From: Xylanibacter ruminicola 23
Lineage (GTDB): Bacteria; Bacteroidota; Bacteroidia; Bacteroidales; Bacteroidaceae
DNA length: 32,000 nucleotides
Direction: 5' to 3'
Assembly: GCF_000025925.1 (NCBI RefSeq)
Contig: NC_014033.1
Coordinates: 1,830,001 to 1,862,000 of the forward strand
Positions 792 through 15,747 of the stretch are shown here, one piece after another. A program made the position numbers and the translations under genes. Each line of letters starts with the position of its first letter. The first letter of the stretch is position 1. The notes below the pieces were generated by a model that ran no database searches, was not told the DNA's origin, and saw nothing but the letters and a program-made list of their open reading frames with translations.

Positions 792-1640
792 TCAAATGGA
801 AAGAATTTTGGATGCAATCCCAAAATCTTTCAAAAAATCAATAAAAGACTCAGCCTTCTCTTTACTTGAAGTAAAATCGCGGTTCGCTAATGATAATTTT
901 CCATATTTTTTTGCACCCAAATTGTGGCATACAAGAATCTCAATTATGTTTATTTCCATAACACTAAGCCAATCCTTAACTTCATTTATATAGTCCATAA
1001 CACTATCAACAAATACGAACCTAAAGAATATGCTCTTGCCGCCAATCATCATTAGATGTTTCTTTATCTCATTTTGATAGTTGCTATCACTTAAATACAT
1101 CTCAGGTTGAATTTTTAGGTCTACTATATATGTATCAATAAAAGGATTTACTAATAATAAAGATTGATCTGGTGCAATTAATGATGTTTCTAATGCTATA
1201 TGCAATCCTTTCTCTTTTAAAAGCTCGAGGACACTAACCAAATTTTCAGACTGGAATAACGGTTCTCCTCCAGAGAAGGTTATACCGCCATTAGATTCGA
1301 TGTATAAAGATTGGTCTCTTAGCAAAATATGAAACAGTTCATCTGGAAGATAATCCCTTGATGTCTCCTCTGCAACTCCAAAAGGACAAGCTGTAATTGA
1401 GTTGCTCCCTTTATTTCTCTGACAGAGTTTACACAATTCAGAATGAACCCCTTTAGACAAAAGGCATTTACTATTATCAATAAACAATTCTTTTTCAAAA
1501 GAAATTGTTTCAGGATTACAACACCACGGGCAACGTAAATAACATCCCTTAAGAAAGACCGTTGTTCTCACTCCAGGACCGTCATATACACATCCCCTTT
1601 GGATATTGGTGACTCTAAGTTGCTTCATATACTTCAGCAC
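792..1640 (-). CDS. Glycyl radical enzyme activating enzyme (radical SAM)
   Basis: 282-aa ORF. GCVYDGPGVRTTVFLKGCYLRCPWC carries the CxxxCxxC cluster motif in the usual GRE-activase N-terminal context. FSGGEPL is the SAM-binding motif. There is an extra Cys set, C-x10-C-x2-C-x11-CP, consistent with an auxiliary Fe-S insert. The start overlaps the stop of the upstream GRE gene by 12-26 nt. Confidence 0.85.
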   Translation of the reverse strand: MLKYMKQLRVTNIQRGCVYDGPGVRTTVFLKGCYLRCPWCCNPETISFEKELFIDNSKCLLSKGVHSELCKLCQRNKGSNSITACPFGVAEETSRDYLPDELFHILLRDQSLYIESNGGITFSGGEPLFQSENLVSVLELLKEKGLHIALETSLIAPDQSLLLVNPFIDTYIVDLKIQPEMYLSDSNYQNEIKKHLMMIGGKSIFFRFVFVDSVMDYINEVKDWLSVMEINIIEILVCHNLGAKKYGKLSLANRDFTSSKEKAESFIDFLKDFGIASKILSI

Positions 1641-3609
1641 GTCGTATTAGATTATCTTTAAACGACTCTGGCAAATCATTAAAATAAGCACTAAAGCCCC
1701 AAACCCTTACAATAAGATTAGGATATTTTTCAGGATGAGCTTTGGCATCAACCAATGTAGCTTTATCCATAACATTAAGCTGTAATTCAAAAATACCGTT
1801 TGAACATGCATTTTTTAATATCCTCGTAAGCTTTTCTGACTCTTTTATATAAGAAGAAGGTATTATAAAATCTACCACATTGCCATTTATGCAATTATCA
1901 TTATAATGCAGCATTGACGAGAATTCTAATACCTCGGATATGTCTATTTTTGAAGTAAGAGGAGATATGTGAACAGCAAAGGGTTCTCCATTTAATCTCC
2001 CATCTAATGAAGCAAGAACATCTTTTGAACTTGAAATATAATTAGGAGAACTAAAACCGACTTTGACAGGTTGACCGTTGCTCGTCAATTTACTAATCAC
2101 ATCTCCTGTAAATGATATAAGATTATTTGTTAGTTCAACAACTTCTTCATCTGTTGATCCAAATTTCTTCCCTGAATTAATTACTAATGAATGGAGATCT
2201 TCCATTCCCTCAAAATTAGTCTCAATTGCCCTTTTGCAATCTGAGAGCTTAAACAATTGTTCATCATATACAAATTGTTTGATACTCAATAATGCGTTCA
2301 CGGTATTGGGGAGACTTACCACTTGTGCGCCATGGAAAGAGTATTTTGCACCACCATCTGTGAAGTCCAGTTCTTTATCAATACAATCATCAAAAAACAA
2401 TGTAAAAAGAGGAGAGCAATCAAAATCAATATCTTTTACGACACTTTCTAATTCTTTTGCATAAGCTGCTTTATACGAAATTAATAGACTATTAAAGTTT
2501 GTAAAGTCTTCTCCAGACAATATAATATCATTAAGAGGTTTTATGGCAATAGCGCTCTTAAAAGGATTATTCTGGTCAAATGACTTACCTATAATAAGCG
2601 GCTCCCAACAGGCAGATGTACCAACATTCCAGACATCACTCCTATCGTAACCAAACCTAGCCATCTTATCCATTACGAGCATTTCGTTCATAATAAGAGG
2701 TGAGCCTGTTCCTGTTAATATACACTTAACAGCCTTATTCCATATTTGCATTGATGTATCCTTATTAACCCGTAGAATTAATTTGGGGTCAGGAATCTTT
2801 AACTCTGCCATAATTTCTAAGAATAACGAAGTTAAAGGTGTATCCACATTTAATCCTTGCTCGTTAACACCTCCGAGTAATATATACTGCCCTGTATCAC
2901 CAACAAATGACATGCTTTTCGCATGTGTATCTTTCCCTAAAACGAGGATAAATTCTCTTATCATCCTTTTTGCCTCGCTCTCGGTTATTATTCCATTTAG
3001 TATATCATTTTGATAATACTCGCATAAAATACTATCGAGACGACCCAATCCTATATGATAGTGATCCATTTGCCAAAATAAAGCATTATAAAACAACAAC
3101 TTTTGCAATGCTTCATCTAATGAGGTCGGTTTGCCATATAGCATTTTTGGAAAATAATCTTTAAGGATGATTTCTCTCCTTCCATCACTCTTTGCTAATG
3201 ATATAGATACTCTATTAGCAAGCTTTTCTATCTCGCTCAACACCTTAAGTTCTCTGTCTTTGAAAGCAATATTTGAGCATTTTTGAATGCGGCTTCTTAA
3301 TTCATTTAAATCTGATTGAAGTACGCGGTCATAGTCTACTGTAATACTACAAATAACAGGGCGCTCATGCATTCTCAATATTAACGAATCCAGTGGATAA
3401 ATATACTCAGTGCCTGTATGAATCTTGATTTTTGAATAAATAAGAGACAATTGTCTGACATAATCATCCAAATAGTTCAAGCTTTTATTATCAAGAACCA
3501 ACTTTCCGTTTACAACAGCTCCAAACCTTGAAACAGAAGGATTTTTTTGATTTAGCTTGCCATACCCTCCGATCAACTTCATGAGCCATGAAAATGCACG
3601 ATTACCCAT
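1615..3609 (-). CDS. Glycyl radical enzyme, PFL2/dehydratase-like family, short form (664 aa)
   Basis: C-terminal IVRVWGFSAYFNDL matches the glycyl radical loop (RVxG[YF]). NVGTSACWEP matches the Cys loop with C-x-E spacing, as in eliminase/dehydratase-type GREs. The blocks GRLDSILCEYY, LILRVNKDT, GTGSPLIMNE, DGRLNGEPFA and ELQLNVMD...HPEKYPNLIVRV follow the family layout as I recall it. Confidence 0.85.
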   Translation of the reverse strand: MGNRAFSWLMKLIGGYGKLNQKNPSVSRFGAVVNGKLVLDNKSLNYLDDYVRQLSLIYSKIKIHTGTEYIYPLDSLILRMHERPVICSITVDYDRVLQSDLNELRSRIQKCSNIAFKDRELKVLSEIEKLANRVSISLAKSDGRREIILKDYFPKMLYGKPTSLDEALQKLLFYNALFWQMDHYHIGLGRLDSILCEYYQNDILNGIITESEAKRMIREFILVLGKDTHAKSMSFVGDTGQYILLGGVNEQGLNVDTPLTSLFLEIMAELKIPDPKLILRVNKDTSMQIWNKAVKCILTGTGSPLIMNEMLVMDKMARFGYDRSDVWNVGTSACWEPLIIGKSFDQNNPFKSAIAIKPLNDIILSGEDFTNFNSLLISYKAAYAKELESVVKDIDFDCSPLFTLFFDDCIDKELDFTDGGAKYSFHGAQVVSLPNTVNALLSIKQFVYDEQLFKLSDCKRAIETNFEGMEDLHSLVINSGKKFGSTDEEVVELTNNLISFTGDVISKLTSNGQPVKVGFSSPNYISSSKDVLASLDGRLNGEPFAVHISPLTSKIDISEVLEFSSMLHYNDNCINGNVVDFIIPSSYIKESEKLTRILKNACSNGIFELQLNVMDKATLVDAKAHPEKYPNLIVRVWGFSAYFNDLPESFKDNLIRRAEVYEAT

Positions 3610-3610
3610 A

Positions 3611-5059
3611 TTATTTTGTTTTCATTCTAAATTTATCTGATACTGTTGAACAAATCCAAATGAATGAACCGTTTTTCAGTATATACTCCATAACACAAAA
3701 TGTTAATACTCCTAATAAAACATAACTAATAACAAGAACCCATCCTTGTAGAAACTGCTTTAATAATATCATTAGAGGAATGAGGATTAAGGCTCCAATT
3801 AGTGCTTTAAGAATATCCTTCCAATTACTAATTCTTATAGGTGTATTTTTATAAACGAATAGCGTTGTAGCTACCAAGATAATTGTTTCTGCTGCGACTG
3901 ACGCAATAGAGGCGCCAACACTACCATAGAATGGAATTAATAGGCAGTTTAAAAGGAAATTAGATATCGCTCCAATTATCACTGAATAAAGAAAAAACTT
4001 ATCAAACCCCATACCTATAAGGATTTGAACTCCTGTAAGATTATTTAAACCTATCGCAATTATCAATAAACTTAATATCATTAATGGTAGAATCGATCCC
4101 CAGAACAACTCTCCAAAAAACAAAGGGACAAAAGAAGGGGAAACACATATAAGACCTATCGCGGCAGGGAAAGAAAGAAGAGAGACTACAGAGAACGACT
4201 TATCCATTAAAGAGTTAATCCCTGAATAATCTTTGTTTTGCATATAATATGACACCCTAGGAACAGCAACTATTGACAAACTGGTTACTGCCGTAAGTAT
4301 CACTTTTGACATATTCATGGCATTTGTGTAAAAACCGACTTCTTCATATCCTTTTATAAATCCCAACATTAAAGTATCTAACACACCATATATCGATATG
4401 GCTATAGAAGAGGCGAACAAAGTAAGTAAAGGCCGCATATGGGGTTTAAGACCTTTAGTCGTTAAGCGTGGTCTTATCCCAGAGCGTCTCATTTTAATAT
4501 AGTTCCAAATGTCGGTAAGGACAGCCGCAAGTACACTAATTAAAACATATATTATAAGATCCTCCTTGTTACGTACAAAAACAAAAAGGCTAATAACACT
4601 TGCTGTACGAATAACTAATGTACGAAATGTAATATATCCAAACTCTTCAAGACCTTGATAATACCAATTAATTTTAAATGGTGCGAGGTACACAAGAAAA
4701 CCGGCGAGTAAGAAAATAAGAAAGTTCTCCGTAAGCTGGTTCACAAATAGAAGTGAAGCAATATAAGCGATAGTGACTCCAATTGTAGTAAAGGCCGCTA
4801 TAGACATTATCTGCGAAACCAGCGTTGAAATTCCTTCTTTATCATCTCTTAGTTTAGAGACCTCGCGTACACCATAAGTGGGTATACCAAGCAATGCAAC
4901 CAATGCAAAATACCCTGCATACGTATTGGCAAAATTGTATATACCTATACCATCTGGTTCCAAAACGCGTGAGACATATGGTGCCGTGATTAAAGGAAAA
5001 ATCACGGATGAGATATTCAAAAGGACATTATATAAAAAATTCCTTTTAATTGATTTCAT
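3611..5059 (-). CDS. wzx: Wzx-type oligosaccharide flippase (MOP superfamily polysaccharide biosynthesis protein)
   Basis: 482 aa, highly hydrophobic with about 12-14 predicted TM stretches. The N-terminus (NFLYNVLLNISSVIFPLITAPYVSRVLEPDGIGIYNFA) is typical of Wzx/RfbX. It lies in a CPS operon. Confidence 0.8.
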   Translation of the reverse strand: MKSIKRNFLYNVLLNISSVIFPLITAPYVSRVLEPDGIGIYNFANTYAGYFALVALLGIPTYGVREVSKLRDDKEGISTLVSQIMSIAAFTTIGVTIAYIASLLFVNQLTENFLIFLLAGFLVYLAPFKINWYYQGLEEFGYITFRTLVIRTASVISLFVFVRNKEDLIIYVLISVLAAVLTDIWNYIKMRRSGIRPRLTTKGLKPHMRPLLTLFASSIAISIYGVLDTLMLGFIKGYEEVGFYTNAMNMSKVILTAVTSLSIVAVPRVSYYMQNKDYSGINSLMDKSFSVVSLLSFPAAIGLICVSPSFVPLFFGELFWGSILPLMILSLLIIAIGLNNLTGVQILIGMGFDKFFLYSVIIGAISNFLLNCLLIPFYGSVGASIASVAAETIILVATTLFVYKNTPIRISNWKDILKALIGALILIPLMILLKQFLQGWVLVISYVLLGVLTFCVMEYILKNGSFIWICSTVSDKFRMKTK

Positions 5060-5119
5060 AGATTATACCAAGAAAACAGGGATTAATTACACAAAACTAA
5101 TTATTATAGAAAATCCCTA

Positions 5120-6406
5120 TTAAATATTAGAAACCATATCCATAGCTGCCCCCATTGCAACATCCATATTATAGTACTCCCAATCAGCAAAACGACCAGT
5201 GAAGTAGAAGCCATTAGGCGATAAAGCATCCTTCAGCGACTTGATCATACCACGGGTATTTGCGTCCTGAATCGGATAGGTATATTTGTTATACTGATGA
5301 TCCAAATATTTTGGATTCAGGGGTATTCTGGAGAGGTTATCTAGGATGTCCTCCTTGCTTATTTCATCTGTAAACTCGATAGTTGCCGTAATGCGATCCT
5401 TAGCCACAGATAGGTAATTATTTGTCTCAGAGAAATTACCAGTACAAATAATACGATGACTCTCATGACGACGAGAAGGCTGATAAATCCAGGAATAAGG
5501 ATTTTTGTCAATTTCGCAGAACACAGCTGTCGTGCCATGATACTCCAAATTAGCAACAGGTTTCTTGAAGGCTTCAATATCCAGGCCCCCAATCATATTG
5601 ACCATGTCTTTGATATTGCCGCAGAACACGACTTTATCAAACTCTTCTCCACATACAATCCATTTCCCGTTTACAAGTTTTATTGATTGGATGTCAGAGT
5701 CGTAGCGAATATCAAGACCTTCAGCCAACTTATCTGCAATATATTGTGAACCATCTTTCTTTTCATACCAGAAAGTGGCATGTACAAAGGCTTTTTCTTC
5801 TACCTTATTGGCATTGTTATCTCGCATTTCCTGAGTGGTTGGCATTGGAAGTTTTCCCTCCATCCACGACATCGGAACTGTTGTCAAATCACGACGCCAC
5901 ACTTTCTCATTGTAGGGCTGGAAATAGAGGTTATAGAGAGTCTTACCGAAGCGCCAACGGAGGAAATCACCAAAGCTATCGTAATCCGTAAATGTGGCGT
6001 TCAAACCCTTCACCTTATCTATTTCCTCCAAGTCTTCATAGAAGGCTGTCTGTGTTGCCTCATCAAATAGGTACATATGATTCTCTATGGGGTAAGGGAT
6101 ATTGTCATGTTCCAGAGACGTGCCGTTTTTATCCATAAAGACACAAGAATTACGGTCAGCTTTACTGAACTCTTCTTCACGGGTAAACTTTGACCAAAAC
6201 CAATCAAGAACATCTTGTCGTTTGGAGTTAAACACATGTCCTCCACAAGTGTGGAAGAGACTACCATTCACTCTACGGCACTTAATTAGGCCTCCAGGCT
6301 GGCTTTCTTTCTCAAAGACAGTAATGTCATACTTATCTCTAAGAAAATGAGCAGTGCTCATTCCAGAAATGCCAGCTCCAATTATCGCAATTCTATTATT
6401 ATTCAT
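5120..6406 (-). CDS. FAD/NAD(P)-binding oxidoreductase; possibly a UDP-galactopyranose-mutase-like or amine-oxidase-fold enzyme
   Basis: 428 aa. N-terminal IAIIGAGISGMSTAHFL...VFEKESQPGG is a Rossmann GxGxxG dinucleotide-binding motif followed by the GG motif. HTCGGHVFNS resembles the mutase/oxidase fold. It has a 4-nt overlap with the upstream gene. Confidence 0.6.
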   Translation of the reverse strand: MNNNRIAIIGAGISGMSTAHFLRDKYDITVFEKESQPGGLIKCRRVNGSLFHTCGGHVFNSKRQDVLDWFWSKFTREEEFSKADRNSCVFMDKNGTSLEHDNIPYPIENHMYLFDEATQTAFYEDLEEIDKVKGLNATFTDYDSFGDFLRWRFGKTLYNLYFQPYNEKVWRRDLTTVPMSWMEGKLPMPTTQEMRDNNANKVEEKAFVHATFWYEKKDGSQYIADKLAEGLDIRYDSDIQSIKLVNGKWIVCGEEFDKVVFCGNIKDMVNMIGGLDIEAFKKPVANLEYHGTTAVFCEIDKNPYSWIYQPSRRHESHRIICTGNFSETNNYLSVAKDRITATIEFTDEISKEDILDNLSRIPLNPKYLDHQYNKYTYPIQDANTRGMIKSLKDALSPNGFYFTGRFADWEYYNMDVAMGAAMDMVSNI

Positions 6407-7383
6407 AACTTGTCAATTATATTCTTTAAACTATTTGCTCTAACTGACGTATAATGCATAGAAAGATAATCCGAATATTTTTTCATGTCCACATCGGAAT
6501 CTAGGGCTTTTTGAACAGCCATCTCAAATTGTTCATAAGTTTCTATATTTTCCGAGAAACTCTTTAAATCATAGTATTCCGTATCAGAATTCATGGAATA
6601 TCTTGCAATAATATGGCAACCTGTAGCTACTAGTTCCAAGAAACGTGGAGTTACTTGGTGATAACCTTTAGTCCTACTCTCATCACCATCAATGCCCGGT
6701 GTGGAATAAAGCCCCATTTTACCCTTTCGCATTATTTCTATGTATTTCTCTCTTGTATCAATATTGCCTAGTATTTCCCCTCTAGAAGTAGCATATATCC
6801 AAGTTTTATCACTCATTGATTTCCGGTAAACAAAGTAAAAATCAGGGTGCTTTTCGTAATACATCTTTACAAAAGTCTCAAGCTTTGGATTCTGTCTTCC
6901 AACCATTACCAGGTCATATTTCTTTTCAATTTTTGAATCTGATGTTATCGAATACTTATCAGAAATACTCAATGGATGATGGACAATATTCAGCGGACAT
7001 CCTTTGCTCTTTAGATAATCGTATGCTTCTTTACTTGAAATTAATACTATTGGGCAATGGTAATAATTATTATAAAAAGACAATAATTCTTTATCTGTGC
7101 GCAAATAGAAATCTATAATACATGGGATATAATTTTTCTTGTTATTAATGTTATTTACATAGGGGGTCATTTCTAGTGCAAAAACTTTTTTGCGAATGGA
7201 AATACTCGTAAGAAAAGCATTAAATGATTTGAAACGTTTATCTTCCAAATACTCCTGATACTTTTTCTTCGGTATAAAATCTACCTCTAGAACATCTTTA
7301 TAAATATCCTCCCACTCATAAACAATATCGTAAGATGGGTACTTTTCAAATTCTCTTTTAGTATATACACCCTCTATCAACAT
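6403..7383 (-). CDS. Hypothetical protein, possibly a GT-B/CgeB-like glycosyltransferase
   Basis: 326-aa ORF in the CPS operon, translationally coupled to the next gene (ATGA overlap). The C-terminal half (LVMVGRQNPK...STPGIDGDES...TPRFLELVATGCHII) loosely resembles the donor-binding half of GT-B enzymes. I recognised no firm family motif. Confidence 0.45.
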   Translation of the reverse strand: MLIEGVYTKREFEKYPSYDIVYEWEDIYKDVLEVDFIPKKKYQEYLEDKRFKSFNAFLTSISIRKKVFALEMTPYVNNINNKKNYIPCIIDFYLRTDKELLSFYNNYYHCPIVLISSKEAYDYLKSKGCPLNIVHHPLSISDKYSITSDSKIEKKYDLVMVGRQNPKLETFVKMYYEKHPDFYFVYRKSMSDKTWIYATSRGEILGNIDTREKYIEIMRKGKMGLYSTPGIDGDESRTKGYHQVTPRFLELVATGCHIIARYSMNSDTEYYDLKSFSENIETYEQFEMAVQKALDSDVDMKKYSDYLSMHYTSVRANSLKNIIDKL

Positions 7384-7589
7384 AACATAATAATATATTT
7401 ACTTCACTATAGGTAAATATGTAAAAATGACGTATACGCTCAAAAGGGTACCTTTGAGGCACCGAATCGGGCTTTCTTGCGTCCCGATGGTAGCAAGCGA
7501 CAAGGTCGAGCGTACGCTAAATTTTGATTAAAATTTTAGATTTCTTTATCTTTTGATGCCAATCGTCTGTGGCAGAAGACTAGCATAGC

Positions 7590-7880
7590 TCACTTCTTAC
7601 TTCTCGAGCCAAAACGATGTTGGTTATTCAGATTGTTACGAGAATCATAATCTGATAATTTTTGTTCCAGATTGCCTATGGTAGAAAGAGCTATGGGCTC
7701 TCAATGATATCGCCTTGTTCTTCCCCGAGTTTACGATAGAAGTTCAGCTGCTCTAACAATTCGTCTCTGTTCATAGTGCCAATTCTCTGTGGAGTTGTTA
7801 TACATATAGAATAATACGTCTCCGGTTCCGATGTAGTCGTACATTCCTGAACGCAAGATTTTTTCTGTTATTGCTGCCAT
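7590..7880 (-). pseudogene. Possible decayed small gene split over three frames
   Basis: Own translation gives three pieces in consecutive frames: 7880-7731 MAAITEKILRSGMYDYIGTGDVLFYMYNNSTENWHYEQRRIVRAAELLS*, 7774-7691 MNRDELLEQLNFYRKLGEEQGDIIESP*, and then EPIALSTIGNLEQKLSDYDSRNNLNNQHRFGSRSKK* ending at 7590. The pattern is consistent with a frameshifted remnant. I recognised no family. Confidence 0.25.
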
Positions 7881-8008
7881 TGTACTTAATATTTAATTCG
7901 GCAGCCGCTCCAGCTGTGCTGGCTTCGCTCGTCGAAGAAAGGTAATCACTTTATTCAGCCCCTGCAATACGTCTTTTTTTCACGCTTACAAATATTCTTA
8001 AATATTAT

Positions 8009-8467
8009 TTATTTCTCCAAACCCAGCACCAATGTATAGTACTCCAATATCCTGCTGATTACAAAATCTGCTTCATGTTTTGTAGGGAATGTACCTGAGG
8101 CATGACAATACGTATTACGTTTATTGGTCACTTCATCTTTAATTCTTGTAGCGACATCGCCAGAGAGTTGCTTAAATCCTGCAGCATTTCTTTGCAAGTC
8201 CCTGACATACTCTGTAATAGAATGACTTGTGTCTGTTCTTGCCCCAAACTTATCTAGGAAAATACGTAGCCCAGTGTCAAATGCCCTCGTGGAATGTAAC
8301 ACCCTATTCAGTTCTGCTCTACGGGCATCTTTAACCACTAACGTAGAGTCTTCTTCCATATTCCACTCATTCTTTACGATGTCAGCCATCTGTACCAAAG
8401 CGGTATTACCTACAACAAAAGAATCAAGTTGAAATTTCAGTGTTTCTATTTTTTTAGCGAGCGACAT
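8009..8467 (-). CDS. Predicted HEPN-domain protein (candidate RNase effector), 152 aa
   Basis: I take the start at MSLAKK (ATG 8467-8465), because the longer ORF-track start lies inside the upstream gene. The sequence looks all-alpha. TNKRNTYCHASG contains R-N-x-x-x-H, the Rx4-6H HEPN signature with the typical polar residue after R. The gene overlaps the upstream gene by 14 nt. Confidence 0.55.
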   Translation of the reverse strand: MSLAKKIETLKFQLDSFVVGNTALVQMADIVKNEWNMEEDSTLVVKDARRAELNRVLHSTRAFDTGLRIFLDKFGARTDTSHSITEYVRDLQRNAAGFKQLSGDVATRIKDEVTNKRNTYCHASGTFPTKHEADFVISRILEYYTLVLGLEK

Positions 8468-9317
8468 GATTACGAATATTTTGATATTTATCAAATACTT
8501 GCCAAAGCTGCTGCTGAGTTGATATAGAGATTGGTGCCATGCCAACAAACGACAACATCCGATTGTAACTATTAGGAACCATATCGGCATCGAACATTGT
8601 CCAATCAGTATTAAGCACACTCAGCTCATCAAACATTGCTGTTGGATACAATCTTCCATCGTCAAGATGAAACATTGACATAAATGCCAAAGTCATCAGA
8701 CTATCAAGTGAAGATTTAAAACTAATGCTTGATTTCCTTTCAGCCACTCCAACAAATCCACCTTGTGTTTGCCAATAGTTATTATTTGAACGACGATTCT
8801 GGGTACTCCAGCTAACGGTTTCAACTTTCCTTACTATGTTTCTATTATCAAAAGCAGCAACCTTCCCTATCTCTGAATAAGACTTAACAGATAGTTCAAG
8901 CCTATTTCTGTAATTGACATACTGCATCGACTGGATCTTACTAAAATCCTTCATGCGTTTCACTACAGGCGATTCTACAGAAATATATCTAACTACATCA
9001 TTTGCGGTATCAGAGATATGACAGAATGAGTTTTCTAATATTTTCGAATCAACTTTTGCAGGTACTTCTTTTATAAGTACAAGTATTGGAATAAGTTTAT
9101 ATCCATAGCTCAGCTGAGACAAAAATAATCTACGCAGAAGGTAATCGATATTCTCCCCCTCTTTATAAGACTGCACATAAACAGCAAACAGCTTGCTGCC
9201 ATTTGCAGCTATCAAATCAGGATTATCCAATGTAAATGGATTCTCTGGTGATATCAGGCATCGCTCGCAATTATTTGCGACAGTTTCAATAAAATAATGT
9301 TTGTCCGCTATCCTCAT
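8454..9317 (-). CDS. Hypothetical protein (287 aa), partner of the HEPN-like gene
   Basis: ORF track. It starts 12 nt after the epimerase stop and overlaps the downstream HEPN-like gene. I recognised no family motif. There is only a weak PD...QSYK pattern in the N-terminal third. Confidence 0.6.
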   Translation of the reverse strand: MRIADKHYFIETVANNCERCLISPENPFTLDNPDLIAANGSKLFAVYVQSYKEGENIDYLLRRLFLSQLSYGYKLIPILVLIKEVPAKVDSKILENSFCHISDTANDVVRYISVESPVVKRMKDFSKIQSMQYVNYRNRLELSVKSYSEIGKVAAFDNRNIVRKVETVSWSTQNRRSNNNYWQTQGGFVGVAERKSSISFKSSLDSLMTLAFMSMFHLDDGRLYPTAMFDELSVLNTDWTMFDADMVPNSYNRMLSFVGMAPISISTQQQLWQVFDKYQNIRNHVAR

Positions 9318-9329
9318 AGATATACATCG

Positions 9330-10391
9330 TTATTTATAATAGCTTTTATACCATTCCGAAAAATCACGAAGCCCTTCTCTTAATGAAATCTTTGGTGTAA
9401 ATCCAAAATCACGTTCCAAGGCTGTTGCATCAGCAAACGTTGCAGGCACATCGCCTGGCTGCATGGGTACCAATTGTTTGTGAGCTTCGAAATCGAAATC
9501 CTTTGGCAGTACGCCAGCACGAACCAATTCTTCTTGAAGGATATTCACGAAATCGAGTAATTTTTCGGGCTGCCCACCTCCAATGTTATACACAGCATAG
9601 GGTGGTACAGGTAAGCCATCCTCGCCTTTCTTACGTTCTGGAGCACCCTGCATTACACGTACAATACCCTCAACAATATCATCGACATATGTAAAATCGC
9701 GACGACAGTTGCCATAGTTAAATATCTGGATGGTTTCGCCTTTAATCAGTTTGTTGGTAAAACCAAAGTAAGCCATATCTGGACGACCTGCAGGGCCATA
9801 CACTGTAAAGAAACGTAGACCAGTAGTGGGGATATCGTAGAGTTTGCTGTAGCAATGTGCCATCAACTCGTTTGATTTCTTTGTGGCTGCATAAAGCGAT
9901 ACAGGATTGTCTACACGATCGTCGGTAGAGAATGGTACTTTCTTATTGCCACCATACACACTGGAACTTGAAGCATAAACTAGATGCTCAACTGGGTGAT
10001 TCCTACAGGCTTCGATGATATTGTAGAAACCGATTATATTTGACTGGATGTAAGCATCGGGATTGGTGATACTATAGCGGACACCGGCCTGTGCTGCAAG
10101 GTTTACCACTACATCGAAATTATACTGAGCAAACAGTTTCTCTATCAAGTCCTTATCAGCCAAATCTCCCCGTACAAAGTGCCATTGAACATGGAACATT
10201 GAACATTGAACATTTAGTTTCTTGAGGCGATACTCCTTTAGGCGAACATCGTAATAATCGTTCATATTATCGATGCCTACGATAGTTGCGCCCTTTACAT
10301 CCTTAAATAAACGATGTACCAGATAAGATCCAATGAATCCTGCAGCACCAGTTACAAGGATACACTTGTTATCTAAGTTAATCTTTTCCAT
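9330..10391 (-). CDS. NAD-dependent nucleotide-sugar epimerase, UDP-glucuronate 4-epimerase-like (SDR family)
   Basis: 353 aa. It has LVTGAAGFIGSYL (the GxxGxxG motif), NLAAQAGVRYS, the catalytic YAATKKSNE (YxxxK), and FFTVYGPAGRPDMA, typical of the CapI/WbnF/Uge group. Confidence 0.85.
   Translation of the reverse strand: MEKINLDNKCILVTGAAGFIGSYLVHRLFKDVKGATIVGIDNMNDYYDVRLKEYRLKKLNVQCSMFHVQWHFVRGDLADKDLIEKLFAQYNFDVVVNLAAQAGVRYSITNPDAYIQSNIIGFYNIIEACRNHPVEHLVYASSSSVYGGNKKVPFSTDDRVDNPVSLYAATKKSNELMAHCYSKLYDIPTTGLRFFTVYGPAGRPDMAYFGFTNKLIKGETIQIFNYGNCRRDFTYVDDIVEGIVRVMQGAPERKKGEDGLPVPPYAVYNIGGGQPEKLLDFVNILQEELVRAGVLPKDFDFEAHKQLVPMQPGDVPATFADATALERDFGFTPKISLREGLRDFSEWYKSYYK
10183..10215. repeat. 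Heptanucleotide tandem repeat (CATTGAA x ~4.7) inside the epimerase CDS
   Basis: CATTGAA CATGGAA CATTGAA CATTGAA CATTT. It encodes NVQCSMFHVQW on the minus strand. Confidence 0.8.
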
Positions 10392-11115
10392 ATTTCTCTA
10401 CAGCAGCATAATATGTATCAAGACTACCGATATCAAATCTCCCTGCACTCATGGGCCAGGCATGCATAGTGGTGTGTTCTACCATATAATGTGCCAGATT
10501 GCCAGGGGCATCTTTGCCACAGCCATTTTCTACAGAGTGGCGTACCAAGGCGAGATCTTCCTTTAGATAGATATAGAAAGGAGGTACAGCCCAATGACTT
10601 TTGGGGGCTTGTGGTTTCTCCTCCATACCAAGTACGCGGTTGTTCTCGTCGAGCTCTACAACACCTGTGCGCTGAAGTTTCTCTATGCTTGGCTGCTCAT
10701 GACACATGATGCAAGAGGTTTTCTTGGCTTTAGCGAAATCAACGAACACCTGGAAAGAGAAGAATAGCAGGTTATCGGCTGCTACCACCAGCAAATCGTC
10801 GTTGATATGCAGCTTATCCATCGCAAAAAGCAAGTCGCATACGGCACCAAGGCGGGTTTCGTTTGTATCCGTGCCATCATCAACAATCGTGATGGGCTTG
10901 GTATAATGCTGAGCTTTTGCCCAATCTTCGAAGATACCGGCAAACTTATGATTGGTAATGATGATATGCTCGGTGATGTCATCGATTGCATCGATGTCGT
11001 CAAGCATACGGCCTAAGATGGTGTTATTACCAATCTTTAGCAACGGTTTCGGAAAGTTCTTGGTTAACTCACCCAAACGAGTGGCGTAACCAGCAGCTAT
11101 TACAATATTAATCAT
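10378..11115 (-). CDS. Sugar-1-phosphate nucleotidyltransferase
   Basis: 245 aa. The N-terminal IVIAAGYATRLGELTKNFPKPLLKI is the G-x-G-T-R-L nucleotidyltransferase signature. Both ends overlap neighbouring genes. Confidence 0.8.
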   Translation of the reverse strand: MINIVIAAGYATRLGELTKNFPKPLLKIGNNTILGRMLDDIDAIDDITEHIIITNHKFAGIFEDWAKAQHYTKPITIVDDGTDTNETRLGAVCDLLFAMDKLHINDDLLVVAADNLLFFSFQVFVDFAKAKKTSCIMCHEQPSIEKLQRTGVVELDENNRVLGMEEKPQAPKSHWAVPPFYIYLKEDLALVRHSVENGCGKDAPGNLAHYMVEHTTMHAWPMSAGRFDIGSLDTYYAAVEKYGKD

Positions 11116-12257
11116 TATTCTACAAATCTTGCTCCATCATCTGGCTTTACCCAAAACACCTGGAATGTTTTTTCGTACTCAGGGAACTGAGCCAGATATT
11201 TTTCGGTTAATACCTTTTCTATTTCAACCTTATGAGCTGGGTTAACCAAAGCTATGCAAGCACCCTTGAAACCGGCACCAGAAAAACGACCACCATATAT
11301 GCCTGGCAGGGCACGCATAATCTCGTAGATGGCTATCAACTCAGGACTACCGCACTCGTAGTTATGGATACTGCTCTCACAAGAGTCGAAGCTCAGTTTT
11401 CCAAAGAGTTTCAAATTACCCGTTTCCCATGCTGTTACACCCTGACGCACACGGCGATATTCGCTATAGAAATGTTCGGCTCGACGGGCAAAACGCTGGG
11501 GCATGGCAATACGTGTTTTCTCGAAGGTAGCCTTTGAAATATCGCGTAAGAACGTCTTATCGAAAGTTTTCAGTGGCTGATCGGTATAAGCCAACATATT
11601 CCAAGCAGCAGTCTTACACTCGAAAACACGAAGGTTATAATCGCTATTAACGAGACTTCGGGTTAATCCAGAGAAGAAAATACCAATCTCGAAATCTGGC
11701 ATATCAGGATGACGTTTGATGATACGCCAATCGTTGCTATCGCAATCTAGGAAGAGCAAACCATCTTTCTTACCTAAGGCAATGCAAGCCTGATCGAGCA
11801 AACCGTTATTTAAACCGATATACTCACGCTCAGCCTCGGATGCTATCTTTACTATCTCGAAGGGTTGAAGTGTAATGTCGTTAGCCTTGGCAAATGCCAT
11901 CACATAGGCAATCAATACAGCAGCACTGGATGACAAGCCACCCACAGGCAGTGAACCTTGAATAACACCAGTGATGCCATGTTTCAATGCGAAACGTTTG
12001 CAAAGCGCATACTTAGCACCACGGGCATAGTCGCCCCAATGTCGCTCGCGCACCTGAGAAGGTGCATCAATCTCGAAATCAACCAACCCCTCGAAGGTTT
12101 TTGACTCCAGATGTACATGACCATCCTCGTTCACATCAAACCAAAGGTCTACACCTTTATCGATGGCAAAGCCAGTTACCAGTCCATGTTGATGATCAAC
12201 ATGTGCCCCCAACGGGCAAACTCTATATGGTGAAAATATATGGTATTGCATAAACAT
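11115..12257 (-). CDS. GHMP-family sugar kinase (galactokinase-like anomeric sugar-1-kinase)
   Basis: 380 aa. LPVGGLSSSAAVLIAY is GHMP motif II, PLGAHVDHQHG resembles the galactokinase signature GEHxDY, and GGRFSGAGFKGACIAL is motif III. Confidence 0.8.
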   Translation of the reverse strand: MFMQYHIFSPYRVCPLGAHVDHQHGLVTGFAIDKGVDLWFDVNEDGHVHLESKTFEGLVDFEIDAPSQVRERHWGDYARGAKYALCKRFALKHGITGVIQGSLPVGGLSSSAAVLIAYVMAFAKANDITLQPFEIVKIASEAEREYIGLNNGLLDQACIALGKKDGLLFLDCDSNDWRIIKRHPDMPDFEIGIFFSGLTRSLVNSDYNLRVFECKTAAWNMLAYTDQPLKTFDKTFLRDISKATFEKTRIAMPQRFARRAEHFYSEYRRVRQGVTAWETGNLKLFGKLSFDSCESSIHNYECGSPELIAIYEIMRALPGIYGGRFSGAGFKGACIALVNPAHKVEIEKVLTEKYLAQFPEYEKTFQVFWVKPDDGARFVE

Positions 12258-12283
12258 TCCTATCCGTTAAAAGATATAAAATG

Positions 12284-12299
12284 TGTCCCCACGGGGACA
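12284..12299 (-). terminator. Hairpin TGTCCC-CACG-GGGACA followed by a U-rich tract, 27 nt upstream of the kinase start
   Basis: 6-bp GC-rich stem with a tetraloop. On the minus strand it is followed by CATTTTATATCTTTT. It is a terminator-like element inside the operon. Confidence 0.35.
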
Positions 12300-12484
12300 G
12301 ATATTTTGTAGTTTCATTACTTATTCGCACCTTTGCAAGGTTGATATAAGCAATAACGATTAATCATAAAATTAACATCTAAAAATTATGACAAAATTAA
12401 ATTTCATCAAGACAAATTTACATCATGTCACCGAACCATCCTCGATTGCGGGCTTTCTGAAGCAATATCCTCATCCCTTCTTAA

Positions 12485-12545
12485 CCCCCTCTCTATATAG
12501 TCCCCACCCTCTCTCTAAAGAGAGGTGGGGCTATAGAAAGAGGGG
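12485..12545. repeat. 61-bp imperfect palindrome (nested hairpin)
   Basis: CCCCCTCTCTATATAG-TCCCCACCCTCTCTC-TAAA-GAGAGGTGGGG-CTATAGAAAGAGGGG. The inner and outer arms are complementary with a few mismatches. Confidence 0.7.
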
Positions 12546-12584
12546 TGTAAGGGATAGAGATATTTTCCTTATTGGTTTTCATCG

Positions 12585-12650
12585 AAAATCAAGTTGATTT
12601 TTACTCAAAATCAAGTTACTTTTGATCCAAAATCAAGTTAGTTTTTACTG
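12585..12650. repeat. Three tandem 22-bp direct repeats AAAATCAAGTTNNTTTTNNNNN
   Basis: The units are AAAATCAAGTTGATTTTTACTC, AAAATCAAGTTACTTTTGATCC and AAAATCAAGTTAGTTTTTACTG, head to tail with no spacers. An inverted CAACTTG follows at 12655-12661. Confidence 0.85.
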
Positions 12651-12713
12651 ACCATCAACTTGGTTATCTGACACTAACCGGTCATAAATGGTCAATTTAC
12701 TATCCGGTTATCG

Positions 12714-12721
12714 TACTTTTG
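12714..12721 (+). promoter_or_regulatory. Plus-strand -7 box TACTTTTG, antisense to the CPS operon
   Basis: Exact TAnnTTTG match. It is followed by a 35-codon ORF (12751-12858, MTYKQTTLFGAFNEPFFHRNREASPKIGVPLNRGT) and by the 12814-12881 hairpin. Confidence 0.35.
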
Positions 12722-12813
12722 CAACGAAATAATTATCAAAATTCAGCGATATGACGTACAAACAGACAACACTTTTTGGAGCTTTCAACGAACCGTTTTT
12801 TCATCGTAATCGA

Positions 12814-12881
12814 GAGGCCTCCCCCAAGATTGGAGTACCCCTTAACAGGGGTACGTAAATCTTTAGGGGGAAAAGGGCCTC
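12814..12881. other. 68-nt three-tier hairpin (candidate structured RNA or terminator)
   Basis: GAGGCC/GGCCTC is the outer stem, TCCCCC/GGGGGA the middle stem, and GTACCCCT-TAAC-AGGGGTAC the terminal 8-bp stem. All pairs are Watson-Crick, so the strand cannot be assigned. Confidence 0.5.
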
Positions 12882-12888
12882 GAAGTGC

Positions 12889-12960
12889 GGTGAATTAACT
12901 CAAAAGGGGCAATGAATTAATTCATTAGGGGTTTTGAATTAATTGACGGTTTTTTAGGGG
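12889..12960. repeat. Three direct repeats of TGAATTAAYT...AGGGG immediately after the upxY stop
   Basis: The units are GTGAATTAACTCAAAAGGGG, CAATGAATTAATTCATTAGGGG and TTTTGAATTAATTGACGGTTTTTTAGGGG. The middle unit contains the perfect 14-bp palindrome ATGAATTAATTCAT (12912-12925). Confidence 0.75.
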
Positions 12961-13653
12961 TTATATTTTCTGGAGGAACGGGGTTGGAATGTAGGCGGTG
13001 GCGCAGAGGCAATTGAGGGCGGTAAGAGCAACGAGCACTCGTTGCTGACCGCGGGCTCGGATAACACGCCCACGAACACCTTTGAACTGACCACAGATAA
13101 CCTCGACCTCATCGTCGGTCTTGTAATGGAAGTCGCCACCTTGGAGCATCAGTAGATTCTCGTCGTTAGTGCAGGTGGCACGGATAAAGTTGAGCATCTC
13201 GTGCTCAGGGATAGTAAGCGGCGGGTTGCGCCAGTTCTCACCCTCGACAAAATGATTGTAGTAGAAGCTGAGGAACTCTGACAGCTGCGGTGCAGGCGAA
13301 GGCTCATCGGGATCGTTATTACGAACGAACATCATGGCCTGCCTGGGTATGAGATAGGCGAACACGATATTGGCAATGAGGCATTGCAACACCTTTTTAG
13401 GGCGCCCCTTCACCTCGATATAGGTATAGCGTTTGGGAACGTAGGCATAAACACCACTCTGGATGAGCAGCTGCTCGGCTAATATCTCACGACCATAGGA
13501 GGCACGAAGTACATACCAACGCTTATCAGGGTCAGGAGCGTATTCTACCGACACCCCTTTTTGTGCATTTACAGCTTCGGGGATGGCCATGGGGGTAAGT
13601 CCACAGCGGGTTATTGGTGATGTAGCCTTGTTAGCATTAGTCAATGCATCCAT
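12961..13653 (-). CDS. upxY: UpxY-family transcription antiterminator (NusG/KOW-like), first gene of the CPS locus
   Basis: 230 aa. KRWYVLRASYGREILAEQLL is an NGN-like start, and the C-terminal EVEVICGQFKGVRGRVIRARGQQRV is a KOW motif. Its position at the head of the polysaccharide operon fits UpxY. Confidence 0.85.
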   Translation of the reverse strand: MDALTNANKATSPITRCGLTPMAIPEAVNAQKGVSVEYAPDPDKRWYVLRASYGREILAEQLLIQSGVYAYVPKRYTYIEVKGRPKKVLQCLIANIVFAYLIPRQAMMFVRNNDPDEPSPAPQLSEFLSFYYNHFVEGENWRNPPLTIPEHEMLNFIRATCTNDENLLMLQGGDFHYKTDDEVEVICGQFKGVRGRVIRARGQQRVLVALTALNCLCATAYIPTPFLQKI

Positions 13654-14029
13654 ATCGGCCTACTGTTTTTAGGCGCGCCAAAGTCTTGGCGGCAAGGCAT
13701 AAAAAAAGCGTGGAATCGTCGCTGCCTATTCCACGAACTGAGGCTCTGGTATGCCCATTGCAGTTGAACAGACAACGTCAGAGCCCACGCCGATATGAAT
13801 ACAGTTCACCCTACCCCACATACGGAGATAGGGGACGCGTATAAACACATCCCGAGGACATCTACCGTTGCTATGTTCAAGACTGCAAATGTGAATTTAC
13901 CAGATTCCAGTTCGTCTTAAACGTAGCGCTTGTAAACGCCTTTAATATGTACGAAAACTCGCTACCCACCCTTCCACTTCTTGGCACGATTGCCTTGAAT
14001 CCGGCGTGGACATGACGAGAATTCGGGCA

Positions 14030-14037
14030 CAAAAATA
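14030..14037 (-). promoter_or_regulatory. Candidate CPS-operon promoter -7 box (TATTTTTG on minus strand)
   Basis: Plus-strand CAAAAATA is the reverse complement of the Bacteroidetes TAnnTTTG consensus. A TTTG lies 20 nt upstream on the minus strand. This placement would give a leader of roughly 370 nt before upxY. Confidence 0.4.
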
Positions 14038-14169
14038 CACCTTTTATTTGAAATAACCAAAGAAAAAGCCAATAAAGAATAAAAAAATCCTCCTGCCTTG
14101 ATTAAAAGCAGAAAATAACAATTTGTTCATCTTCTTTTCAAAAAACTTGCATGTTTCAACTATTTGTTT

Positions 14170-14177
14170 TATATTTG
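14170..14177 (+). promoter_or_regulatory. Promoter -7 box TATATTTG for the 14206-15191 operon
   Basis: Exact TAnnTTTG match 29 nt upstream of ATG 14206, with a TTGC 19 nt further upstream. Confidence 0.5.
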
Positions 14178-14205
14178 CAGCGTCTTAACAATATTAGAGT
14201 TATAT

Positions 14206-14691
14206 ATGGAAGATAATAATATCAAAATGGCTTCAGAGCCTGCAGTAGCATATCCCATAACATCTTATACGGATGTGATGGAGTATATTCACTCTATCCA
14301 TATATCACGTGAAGACAAGGAGAAAGTGGCTCAGCGTCTTACAGTTGAGGTAACTCAACCAGCTTTGGCTGAGGCTTATGATCGCATAGATCACCTAAGT
14401 ACGCTTGGAATAGATTGGGATGGCCACGGAGCTCTTCCTATATCATTTCGAGTACTTAAAAATATCAAGAGCGTTCTGATGATTTCACAGAATTCTGATT
14501 GGGAACACTGGATGATTGCTCCTGATACTAACGCTACGATTGATTTGGAGTCGGAAAAAACTGGAGCTGTAATCAGTCTTGGAGCTTATGAGTATTCTTA
14601 TTTTGCAAAGGTTAATGGTGAAAGATTAGGTGAGAGTCATATTGATTTTAAACCAGAGGCTTTCCTTGAATTAATGCGTAAACTCGGATGA
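14206..14691 (+). CDS. Hypothetical protein (161 aa), first gene of an uncharacterised two-gene operon; candidate antitoxin or immunity component
   Basis: I take the ATG at 14206 (MEDNNIK...), downstream of the -7 box; the ORF-track start at 14164 lies upstream of the likely TSS. It contains LGIDWDGHGALPIS. The stop overlaps the next start (ATGA). Confidence 0.6.
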   Translation: MEDNNIKMASEPAVAYPITSYTDVMEYIHSIHISREDKEKVAQRLTVEVTQPALAEAYDRIDHLSTLGIDWDGHGALPISFRVLKNIKSVLMISQNSDWEHWMIAPDTNATIDLESEKTGAVISLGAYEYSYFAKVNGERLGESHIDFKPEAFLELMRKLG

Positions 14692-15191
14692 ACACATCAG
14701 ATACACCAACAGAAATACATCAGGTTCCCTCCGAGGAAAATGTCGCTCGTATTCTTTCCAAGGAGTGGTTCGTTAAGGATAAACTTTTATCAGTTGCTTT
14801 TGCTTTGGATGCAGGTGAGACTTATCTCTCTGTAAATCGTCCTGCTATTGATACATATGATAGTGATGTTTCTGCATTTGTGAAGAAACATAGTAGTTAT
14901 GCTTTCGATAGCGATAGTTACAAACGTGCATTGTTAAATGTTGGTGACGTTCGTAGTATAAAAGTAGAGGTTGGGGCAACTCAAATGATGACAGATGTTG
15001 AGGTGGAACCTCGAGATGCTCATACAAAGTCGCATGCGGGTATTTTCACCAGGTTCCAAAACGTGAACATCAAGAAAGGTCAGATATTGAAAGCTGGTCC
15101 AACAGCCGAGGAAATCTCTGCAGATACGGTACTTTTAGAAGTCCGCAAAGAATTACTAGCCCTTTCAACTGTTGAGGATTGCAAGTTTTAA
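14688..15191 (+). CDS. Hypothetical protein (167 aa), second gene of the operon; candidate toxin or effector
   Basis: ORF track. It has a 4-nt ATGA overlap with the upstream gene. I recognised no family. Conserved-looking blocks are ETYLSVNRP and EPRDAHTKSHAGIFTRF. Confidence 0.6.
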   Translation: MNTSDTPTEIHQVPSEENVARILSKEWFVKDKLLSVAFALDAGETYLSVNRPAIDTYDSDVSAFVKKHSSYAFDSDSYKRALLNVGDVRSIKVEVGATQMMTDVEVEPRDAHTKSHAGIFTRFQNVNIKKGQILKAGPTAEEISADTVLLEVRKELLALSTVEDCKF

Positions 15192-15405: not shown

Positions 15406-15747
15406 TTAACCCAATAATTTTATTCCGTCTTCAGTTACGTTTTCGCGGAAAGGACTAATTATACTGCTTTCCCAATCGCGTTTGGTATATAAGATCGTAT
15501 TAATGCACTGATTATAGTCCCAACCCAATTCGCATAATGGATAAGAATAATCATCAATATCCTGAGAGGTTATGTGATCTTTATCAAGCAGGATAAGCAC
15601 ATCCCAATCAGAATCTTCACGAGCATCACCACGTGCTCTTGAGCCAAAGAGAATAACTGTAGCACCCTTTGGCACAATCTGACTAACCTTGTCTCTTATA
15701 GCATTCAAGATTTGATTATTAATCACGCTTACCCTCCATCTTATCAA
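15406..15747 (-). CDS. Minimal nucleotidyltransferase (MNT / Pol-beta superfamily) domain protein
   Basis: 113 aa. ILFGSRARGDAREDSDWDVLILLD matches the GS-x9-12-D-x-D NTase motif. An alternative GTG start at 15726 overlaps the AbiEii stop (GTGATTAA). There is no HEPN partner gene downstream. Confidence 0.8.
   Translation of the reverse strand: MIRWRVSVINNQILNAIRDKVSQIVPKGATVILFGSRARGDAREDSDWDVLILLDKDHITSQDIDDYSYPLCELGWDYNQCINTILYTKRDWESSIISPFRENVTEDGIKLLG

Follow-up and report, generated by a model that had tools for sequence, protein, structure and literature searches.

Two overlapping genes within a capsule operon

The window analyzed here, a 32,000-nucleotide (nt) stretch of the Xylanibacter (Prevotella) ruminicola 23 genome (contig NC_014033.1, positions 1,830,001 to 1,862,000), carries on its minus strand a cassette of 2 small genes, which we designate protA and protB. 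According to a Pfam scan, the flanking genes constitute a Bacteroidales-type capsule operon on the same strand as the pair. The upstream gene, protA, encodes a 287-amino-acid (aa) protein, and protB encodes a 152-aa protein of the HEPN superfamily that is predicted to act as a metal-independent ribonuclease (RNase). The 2 open reading frames (ORFs) overlap by 14 nt, which suggests translational coupling, and the ATG start of protB is backed by an N-terminus (MSLAKKIETL) that is conserved among its homologs. At the protein level, protA is 100% identical to the NCBI record "hypothetical protein PRMUPPPA20_20870" of Xylanibacter ruminicola. An initial annotation of this DNA, made from the letters alone, had given the coordinates, the overlap and the 12-nt distance from the preceding epimerase gene correctly and had left the minus strand unstated. 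The coordinates of the cassette and its main surroundings are collected in Table 1.

protB as a divergent minimal HEPN protein

HEPN domains are defined by (i) a conserved Rx4-6H motif whose arginine is followed by a polar residue (N, D or H), and (ii) in the N-terminal half, a further conserved acidic residue, usually within Ex3[KR] in helix 2 (PMC3710099). The sequence KRNTYCH (residues 116–122) of protB, which the initial annotation had read as a HEPN signature, supplies R117-N118-x3-H122 in agreement with the first part of the definition. The bare Rx4-6H motif is thin evidence, because the window ORFs of 100 aa or more, 12,617 residues in total, contain it 44 times; of the stricter RNxxxH they contain a single copy, that in protB. 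What raises the protB motif above chance is its conservation among homologs. A word-indexed search yielded 33 close homolog clusters, and an exhaustive profile search of 1.8 billion representatives yielded 152 proteins at E-values up to 1e-3, nearly all of about 150 aa. Essentially every complete homolog carries R-N-x-[YF]-x-H at the same position, and only at R117, N118 and H122 is the alignment invariant (123/123 homologs, with identity down to 21%), so that the conservation of the arginine and histidine, which the initial annotation had left to be checked, is confirmed. Near-invariant in this alignment are E34 (kept in 120/123), R61, D64, L67 and P128. D64 is kept in 118 of the 123 sequences and replaced by E in the remaining five, and K or R stands at the +4 position in 71.

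The AlphaFold2 model of protB (predicted local distance difference test score, pLDDT, 94; predicted template-modeling score 0.89) is composed of 6 helices and is all-helical, as had been supposed from the sequence. The modeled helices include residues 22–44 and 48–73, followed by an insert (residues 74–102) and by helices 103–122 and 130–148. The RNxxxH motif is located at the C-terminal end of the penultimate helix (103–122), before the loop to the last helix. On this predicted structure, both the topology and the position of the motif agree with the published description of the HEPN fold (PMC3710099). Structural comparison with the Protein Data Bank (PDB) by Foldseek placed HepT/HEPN toxin chains at ranks 1, 3, 5, 6, 7, 9, 10 and beyond, with Csm6 at rank 2; these toxin chains account for 16 of the top 50 matches.

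Sequence profiles point in the same direction. The protB family consensus matches the Pfam family HEPN (PF05168) with an E-value of 6.2e-4 and 20.4 bits, under the 22-bit cut-off, and the match spans the motif region at the corresponding end of the profile. The consensus also matches HEPN_Swt1 (E-value 0.023), HEPN_Apea (0.09) and HEPN_Cthe2314. Among the individual members, 17 of 123 match HEPN_Apea (best E-value 3.7e-4; below Pfam gathering scores), and altogether 28 member matches are distributed over 6 HEPN families (Apea, Swt1, DUF4145, Cthe2314, RiboL-PSP-HEPN and HEPN). A search of both window proteins against PHROG returned matches at noise level (best E-value 0.016). The HEPN-like character that the initial annotation had predicted for the 152-aa protein is thus supported by a family consensus near the PF05168 threshold and by HepT chains as the best, though weak, fold matches. 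We conclude that protB very likely founds, or belongs to, an undescribed family of the HEPN superfamily (clan CL0291).

The partner protein protA

The AlphaFold2 model of protA (pLDDT 85) consists of 2 α/β halves joined by a long helix. Its N-terminal domain, which is conserved across the whole wider family, has the order α-β-β-β-α-β, which fits the core of PD-(D/E)xK nucleases. Foldseek searches of the PDB returned Hjc resolvases, R.BspD6I, Bax1, VC1899 and nucleases of the LmuA/Can2 type, and searches of BFVD returned VRR-NUC, "restriction endonuclease", RecU and Hjc; each match is weak, but the 2 independent structure libraries agree in direction, toward restriction-endonuclease-like nucleases. 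Residues P27, P33-D34, A45, E53, L60, R63, F98, W170, G221 and G259 are invariant across the wide protA family. In the model, strand 2 begins with P33-D34; a short helix that comes after strand 3 contains E53, and the helix following it contains R63. Sequence and profile searches of the PDB with protA gave no meaningful match. A RE_SinI match on the C-terminal half, obtained with the consensus against Pfam (14.8 bits, E-value 0.017), was not trusted and is regarded as noise.

We tentatively describe protA as a protein with a restriction-endonuclease-like (PD-(D/E)xK) N-terminal fold, as judged from the model, and a C-terminal α/β domain. Possible roles for it are that of a non-canonical nuclease and that of a sensor or regulator that binds nucleic acid. 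The initial annotation had seen no recognizable motif in this protein, which stands as far as family matches are concerned and is to be amended by the weak restriction-endonuclease-like fold.

Conservation, spread and mobility of the pair

Wherever a related locus extends far enough upstream, the HEPN gene is directly preceded by a co-oriented protA homolog. The 2 genes either overlap, by 14, 8 or 4 nt, or are separated by 2–32 nt. The partners in distant high-GC loci share only 16–21% identity with protA; they were recognized by hhalign (probability 95.5%, E-value 1.4e-8 over the N-terminal 125 columns) and by hmmsearch (E-values 1e-13 to 5e-6). The co-occurrence of the 2 genes, proposed as a check in the initial annotation, thus holds wherever upstream sequence exists, with homologous partners. 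The pair is spread over 4 phyla (Bacteroidota, Acidobacteriota, Gemmatimonadota and that of a Lachnospiraceae metagenome-assembled genome, MAG), and the named members and record titles comprise Xylanibacter, a Blastocatellia MAG, Candidatus Palauibacter and the Lachnospiraceae MAG. The distribution is sporadic: a scan with close-family patterns found one locus among 185,579 species-representative genomes.

The closest relative of the window cassette, in locus L030, has 82.9% nucleotide identity to it from exactly the protA ATG (position 9317) to 13 nt past the protB stop (position 7996), and the flanks of the 2 cassettes are unrelated. The cassette therefore behaves as a discrete, exchangeable unit of about 1.3 kb. 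Att-like, attC-like or terminal repeats were considered as a means of moving it and were rejected, since the flanks share nothing across lineages.

One locus is a natural knockout of protA. In L024 (positions 2294–9525), the protA homolog is broken into 3 fragments by 2 different IS66-family elements, each with accessory ORFs and a transposase of 640 aa or 676 aa. The HEPN ORF of this locus is intact; it keeps its RNKYMH motif and is identical to an intact relative at 150 of 156 positions.

Defense and capsule neighborhoods

Known defense genes lie within about 8 kb of the pair in at least 9 of about 14 non-redundant contexts with Pfam-annotated flanks, a raw count rather than an enrichment over a genome-wide background. 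Siting beside known defense systems recurs in unrelated genomes, as expected for a defense-island gene. Outside Bacteroidota, one locus contains patatin and SMODS (CBASS), DUF4062, Mrr and a SNF2/PLD helicase; another contains PDDEXK_4, Mrr_cat, NucS, DUF4062 and HNH; a third contains AbiEii, IS21, a D12 methyltransferase and ResIII; a fourth contains ArdC_N, ParB and TIR_2; and one lies in an integrase/AAA_25 island. In the Lachnospiraceae MAG, the pair follows ACP-synthase genes and precedes SLATT_4 and SMODS.

In Prevotella-like genomes the setting is a polysaccharide locus, often combined with defense genes: (i) in L005-7, the pair is located mid-operon between sugar-modification genes and a flippase; (ii) in L022-27, it is located between an epimerase or glycosyltransferases and a gene of membrane-protein size (501 aa) plus WecG, with AbiH adjoining once; (iii) in L028, it follows PEP-mutase, LicD and GT1 and is followed by GmrSD_N, a Gabija-like OLD-TOPRIM ATPase with UvrD, and AbiH; (iv) in L031, it follows an epimerase and is followed by GmrSD_N, ThsB-TIR, caspase, TIR and NACHT; and (v) in L029/30, it is located between Abi_alpha or an IS66 fragment on one side and FRG and capsule genes orthologous to those of the window on the other. 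In L001, the pair is beside an AAA_21 pair, a Schlafen-type helicase and GIY-YIG, with epimerases next. The suggestion in the initial annotation that the cassette is tied to one particular capsule type is not borne out, because several distinct capsule loci contain it, and it is found outside such loci as well.

Some neighbors recur in a fixed arrangement. In L028 (8518–10675) and L031 (8465–10679), GmrSD_N (DUF262) and an unannotated 301-aa gene follow the HEPN gene, in L031 with a 4-nt overlap, which hints at occasional four-gene operons. In the related high-GC loci L011 (2354–4332) and L013 (2992–4926), a DUF4062 gene of about 380 aa and an unannotated gene of 254–271 aa are located just upstream of the pair; in L031, the NACHT-TPR protein likewise has a DUF4062 fused to it. 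In L008 (9475–12240), a 422-aa protein without a Pfam match directly follows the pair and precedes SLATT_4 and SMODS. It contains ERNLCAH (RNxxxH) and may be a second HEPN-type effector on a CBASS-like module.

Expression and base composition

Sigma-70-like sites occur in the numbers expected from shuffled sequence (18 found versus 18.4 expected), and the Bacteroidetes -7 box TAnnTTTG is absent on the minus strand from 9318 to 10900, upstream of protA. A candidate TAnnTTTG box is present at 14037, upstream of the NusG/UpxY-like gene. These results, although weak as evidence, leave uncontradicted the earlier statement that the cassette has no promoter of its own. The cassette is therefore probably expressed by read-through from the UpxY-type operon promoter. 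An inverted-repeat search upstream of the UpxY-like gene, aimed at invertible promoters, found only weak repeats, and phase variation of the operon is thus unsupported. The guanine-plus-cytosine (GC) fraction falls from 0.43–0.47 at 9400–12200 to 0.35–0.40 across the cassette and 0.28–0.36 at 6400–7400, so that the placement of the cassette at a GC boundary is roughly right. An Rfam search of 7000–14400 found no RNA family in or beside the cassette.

Flanking features of the window

Beyond the ORF-free stretch that follows the cassette, the operon continues with a 326-aa protein of unknown function, an FAD oxidoreductase, a Polysacc_synt flippase, and a glycyl-radical enzyme with its activase. 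The last 2 genes (792–3609, minus strand; a 664-aa PFL-like and Gly_radical protein and a radical-SAM activase) form the distal end of the operon and are unusual cargo for a polysaccharide locus.

The stretch of 625 bp directly after protB (7384–8008) contains no ORF. In the initial annotation it had been called decayed. The idea that it holds remnants of the genes that occupy this place in L030 (FRG, Wzz-like and dTDP-sugar isomerase) was rejected, since a tblastn search detected none in the gap. Within the gap, 28-nt imperfect inverted repeats (7408–7435 and 7967–7994) have GTAA at their outer ends, and the enclosed segment shares matches of 31–42 nt with DNA near the IS66 fragment in L029/L030. 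At 7408–7994 there is no visible target-site duplication. IS66 inverted repeats start with GTAA. Possibly the segment is a non-autonomous IS66-type element that has decayed.

The UpxY-like gene is separated from the first biosynthesis gene by an ORF-poor stretch of 700 bp, in which no UpxZ-sized ORF was found. A long and very stable hairpin with a near-perfect palindrome is located there (12470–12560, minus strand; -66.5 kcal/mol over 151 nt, z = -6.4), for which Rfam gave only spurious miRNA-precursor matches.

Farther upstream lie a complete AbiEi/AbiEii pair and a gene for a minimal nucleotidyltransferase (MNT), so that conflict genes are present in the 5' flank of the capsule locus as well. 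The MNT gene, 7 kb from the cassette, had been noted as an orphan and as the usual HEPN partner. Its NTP_transf_2 assignment is confirmed; as the missing partner of protB it was rejected, because it overlaps AbiEii and follows the AbiEi/AbiEii pair, to which it belongs by position, and is unrelated to the cassette. No MNT was found among the called or Pfam-scanned genes of the related loci. Between the capsule promoter region and MNT, 2 ORFs of 175 and 167 aa without Pfam matches overlap by 4 nt on the plus strand (14164–15191) and may be another small two-gene module.

Table 1. Positions of the cassette, its parts and the surrounding features in the window.
Feature	Position	Strand	Description
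protA	9317..8454	minus	287-aa ORF; upstream partner; no Pfam, NCBIfam, PADLOC or PHROG family
protA N-terminal domain	8973..9317	minus	About residues 1–115; conserved across the whole wider family
protB	8467..8009	minus	152-aa ORF; minimal HEPN-superfamily protein; predicted metal-independent RNase effector
protA/protB overlap	8454..8467	minus	14 nt; end of protA over start of protB
R117-N118-T-Y-C-H122 codons	8119..8102	minus	RNxxxH (Rx4-6H); predicted catalytic motif
Spacer	9318..9329	minus	12 nt from epimerase stop to protA ATG; upstream cassette edge
NAD-dependent epimerase	9330-10391	minus	Pfam Epimerase, E-value 2e-57; directly upstream of protA
Nucleotidyltransferase	10378-11115	minus	Pfam; upstream of the pair
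GHMP kinase	11115-12257	minus	Pfam; upstream of the pair
NusG/UpxY-like gene	12961-13653	minus	Pfam; upstream of the pair
MNT	15406-15747	minus	113 aa; NTP_transf_2; 29-nt overlap with AbiEii; no HEPN gene after it
AbiEii	15719-16522	minus	Pairs with AbiEi
AbiEi	16519-17331	minus	Type IV toxin–antitoxin/Abi pair with AbiEii
Possible decayed element	7408..7994		28-nt imperfect inverted repeats at 7408-7435 and 7967-7994; outer ends GTAA

Comparison with known HEPN systems

The best structural matches of protB belong to HepT/MntA, a type VII toxin–antitoxin (TA) system (DUF86/PF01934, PF05168; PDB 8xeh, 8yuf, 8xdj, 7ae8, 4nqf, 1wwp and 1wty). Like HepT, protB is a stand-alone, all-helical protein of about 130–150 aa, with R-N-x3-H about 30 residues from the C-terminus and followed by the last helix, and, as in HepT/MntA, the HEPN gene is the second gene of an overlapping two-gene operon. 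The differences are that (i) HepT/MntA pairs the HEPN toxin with an adjacent MNT antitoxin that AMPylates it, whereas the partner here is not an MNT, since protA has no NTP_transf_2 or Polbeta match and a different fold; and (ii) protB carries one more helix at its N-terminus, and about 30 residues are inserted between its core helices 2 and 3.

ApeA (Pfam HEPN_Apea, PF18739) is reportedly a single-gene defense system, said to have been described by Gao et al. in 2020. The HEPN_Apea family is the Pfam family most often matched by individual protB members, and the pair shares with ApeA and other defense HEPN proteins (AbiD/F, AbiJ, AbiV, Swt1-like and DUF4145) the RNase-type HEPN motif and the defense-island settings. 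By contrast, the ApeA and Abi HEPN proteins are single larger polypeptides with N-terminal domains of their own, such as the mostly β ApeA-NTD1 of about 300 aa (PMC3710099), whereas the pair consists of a separate 150-aa HEPN gene and an α/β gene of about 290 aa. The PADLOC models of the ApeA and Abi HEPN systems did not match the pair.

CoCoNuT type IV systems are said to combine restriction-endonuclease (REase)-fold and HEPN RNase modules, and the pair resembles such combinations in having a REase-like fold and a HEPN module in one conflict system. Associations of HEPN with REase domains are known in general, for example as DUF4145-REase fusions and in the EC042_2821 family (PMC3710099). Unlike the REase-HEPN fusions and the multi-gene McrBC-type systems with ATPases, the pair comprises 2 small genes, with no NTPase and without (D/E)xK, and no sequence relationship to the REase-HEPN families was detected.

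With RnlA-RnlB and LsoA-LsoB, which are linked to phage defense, the pair has in common a two-gene organization of a HEPN toxin with a non-MNT protein partner. In RnlA-RnlB, a large multidomain toxin comes first and a small antitoxin second; in the pair, sizes and gene order are reversed. PDB searches gave no sequence or fold match to RnlA or RnlB, and literature searches found no description of this gene pair.

Proposed function and alternative explanations

Beyond the HEPN-superfamily assignment, the pair conservation, the cassette boundaries and the defense and capsule neighborhoods shown above, we interpret the pair as probably being a self-contained, horizontally exchanged conflict cassette, a candidate anti-phage defense of the abortive-infection type with a TA-like organization. 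In the proposed mechanism, protB would be the RNase effector, acting through R-N-x3-H, which together with the conserved E34, R61 and D64 would form a metal-independent RNase center, presumably in a dimer. Such centers are typical of HEPN dimers. The protein protA, translated from the same message, is a putative sensor or regulator that would restrain protB or activate the RNase when foreign nucleic acid appears; alternatively, it may be a second, non-canonical nuclease. Activation would lead to cleavage of RNA by the predicted RNase and to growth arrest of the infected cell, from which the defense phenotype would result. Located between the nucleotide-sugar genes and the variable part of the capsule locus, the cassette would be co-transcribed with the operon by read-through. 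The defense interpretation is likely because the pair sits among anti-phage defense genes in other bacteria, and the same neighbors support the "defense or addiction module" envisaged in the initial annotation.

Several results weigh against this interpretation. For protB, (i) no family match was found in Pfam, NCBIfam or PADLOC (Pfam and PADLOC-DB v2.0.0 at E-values up to 1); (ii) the Foldseek statistics are weak (E-values of at least 0.18, template-modeling (TM) scores 0.43–0.50; probability 0.94 for 8xeh_D); and (iii) neither protB alone nor the family profile matched PDB sequences. For protA, (iv) searches of Pfam, NCBIfam, PADLOC and PHROG, also with family consensus queries, gave no family match; (v) the fold matches are weak (E-values 0.02–0.3, TM scores on the target 0.33–0.47); and (vi) strand 3 (residues 42–48) has no conserved acidic residue or lysine and hence no canonical (D/E)xK signature, which makes nuclease activity doubtful. 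Among the loci, (vii) one pair lies amid metabolic genes with HicAB 4 kb away; (viii) the capsule operons of L005-7 have no defense gene near the pair; (ix) several of the neighborhood loci are related to each other, which partly confounds guilt by association; (x) a viral-contig scan found no relative of the cassette and a search of plasmid DNA no match to it, so that there is no evidence for phage or plasmid carriage; and (xi) L024 argues against an indispensable antitoxin role of protA, except if the HEPN gene is silenced by the insertions too.

A more speculative extension of the abortive-infection interpretation, which we put forward as possible but doubtful, is that the capsule loci of rumen Prevotella are insertion hot spots for small defense "islets", so that one promoter would co-regulate the coat and intracellular abortive infection, and that the cassette is an unnamed two-gene system in which a sensor with a non-canonical nuclease fold controls a minimal HEPN RNase.

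The pair could instead be a classical TA addiction module, with protB as the toxin and protA as a proteinaceous antitoxin, which would stabilize the DNA that carries it (the capsule locus or a mobile island) rather than defend against phages. We regard this as unlikely, although a tight, overlapping and co-oriented operon with a small toxin-like gene in second place is what such a module would look like, small HEPN proteins are well known as TA toxins, and protB finds its best fold matches in HepT chains. The integrase/AAA_25 island and the locus with ArdC_N and ParB look integrative or conjugative, HicAB is near the pair in one locus, and an addiction module could persist in recombination-prone capsule loci. 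However, a broken protA next to an intact HEPN gene, as in L024, is hard to square with an essential antitoxin unless the toxin is silenced as well; at 287 aa, protA is large, and its fold is nuclease-like rather than that of a DNA-binding antitoxin or an MNT; and repeated siting among bona fide defense systems is more typical of defense genes. The natural knockout in L024 and the size and fold of protA, together with the sporadic, mobile distribution, thus weaken the addiction module, and also the capsule-related role considered below. TA function and defense are not mutually exclusive.

It is less probable still that the pair carries out restriction-like targeting of DNA, with protA as the effector (a non-canonical PD-(D/E)xK nuclease, for example type IV or modification-dependent) and the HEPN protein as an accessory with an RNA-directed or regulatory role. 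The best folds of protA in both structure libraries are Holliday-junction resolvases, VRR-NUC and restriction endonucleases; P33-D34, E53 and R63 are invariant family-wide; GmrSD_N and the 301-aa gene directly follow the pair in 2 Prevotella-like loci (with the 4-nt overlap in L031); and HEPN domains fused to or in operons with REase domains are documented (PMC3710099). The absence of (D/E)xK from strand 3, where no lysine is conserved, weakens this explanation. Moreover, protA has no sequence similarity to any nuclease family, consensus queries included; the strictly invariant, catalytic-looking motif belongs to the HEPN protein, not to protA; and a methyltransferase is not consistently linked to the pair.

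A housekeeping or regulatory role in capsule synthesis, such as processing of the long capsule-operon transcript, by which the location would reflect function rather than hitch-hiking, is very improbable: in at least 6 Prevotella-like contexts (the window, L005-7, L022-27, L028, L029/30 and L031) the pair does lie inside a polysaccharide locus or at its border, co-oriented with the operon and with no promoter of its own detected, but the family is sporadic (the single match among the 185,579 genomes with close-family patterns), moves as a discrete 1.3-kb unit between unrelated flanks, occurs in different capsule loci of differing gene content while most capsule loci are without it, and in other phyla is located in defense islands or mobile elements without polysaccharide genes.

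Implications

The pair is probably a HEPN-based two-gene conflict system, with an undescribed partner family and a recurrent association with capsule loci. If its function is confirmed, a compact (1.3 kb) two-gene HEPN system and a new partner family would be added to the known bacterial immune and toxin modules. Neither protein is at present represented in Pfam, NCBIfam or PADLOC, and both are annotated everywhere as "hypothetical". As a small family that spans several phyla, the pair offers a tractable entry to the control of a minimal HEPN RNase by a non-MNT partner.

The recurrent siting in Prevotella-like capsule loci together with GmrSD, Gabija-like, TIR and AbiH genes suggests that capsule loci are hot spots for defense genes. 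The defense protein AbiJ is a HEPN protein. In a 2026 single-cell study of B. fragilis, particular capsule types and defense systems (AbiJ and Gabija) were found to act together against phage (PMC13139388), and the linkage between capsule and defense is therefore worth testing. Capsule expression and intracellular immunity may be co-regulated; if this is true, a first line of phage resistance, receptor masking, would be physically coupled to a second line that targets RNA.

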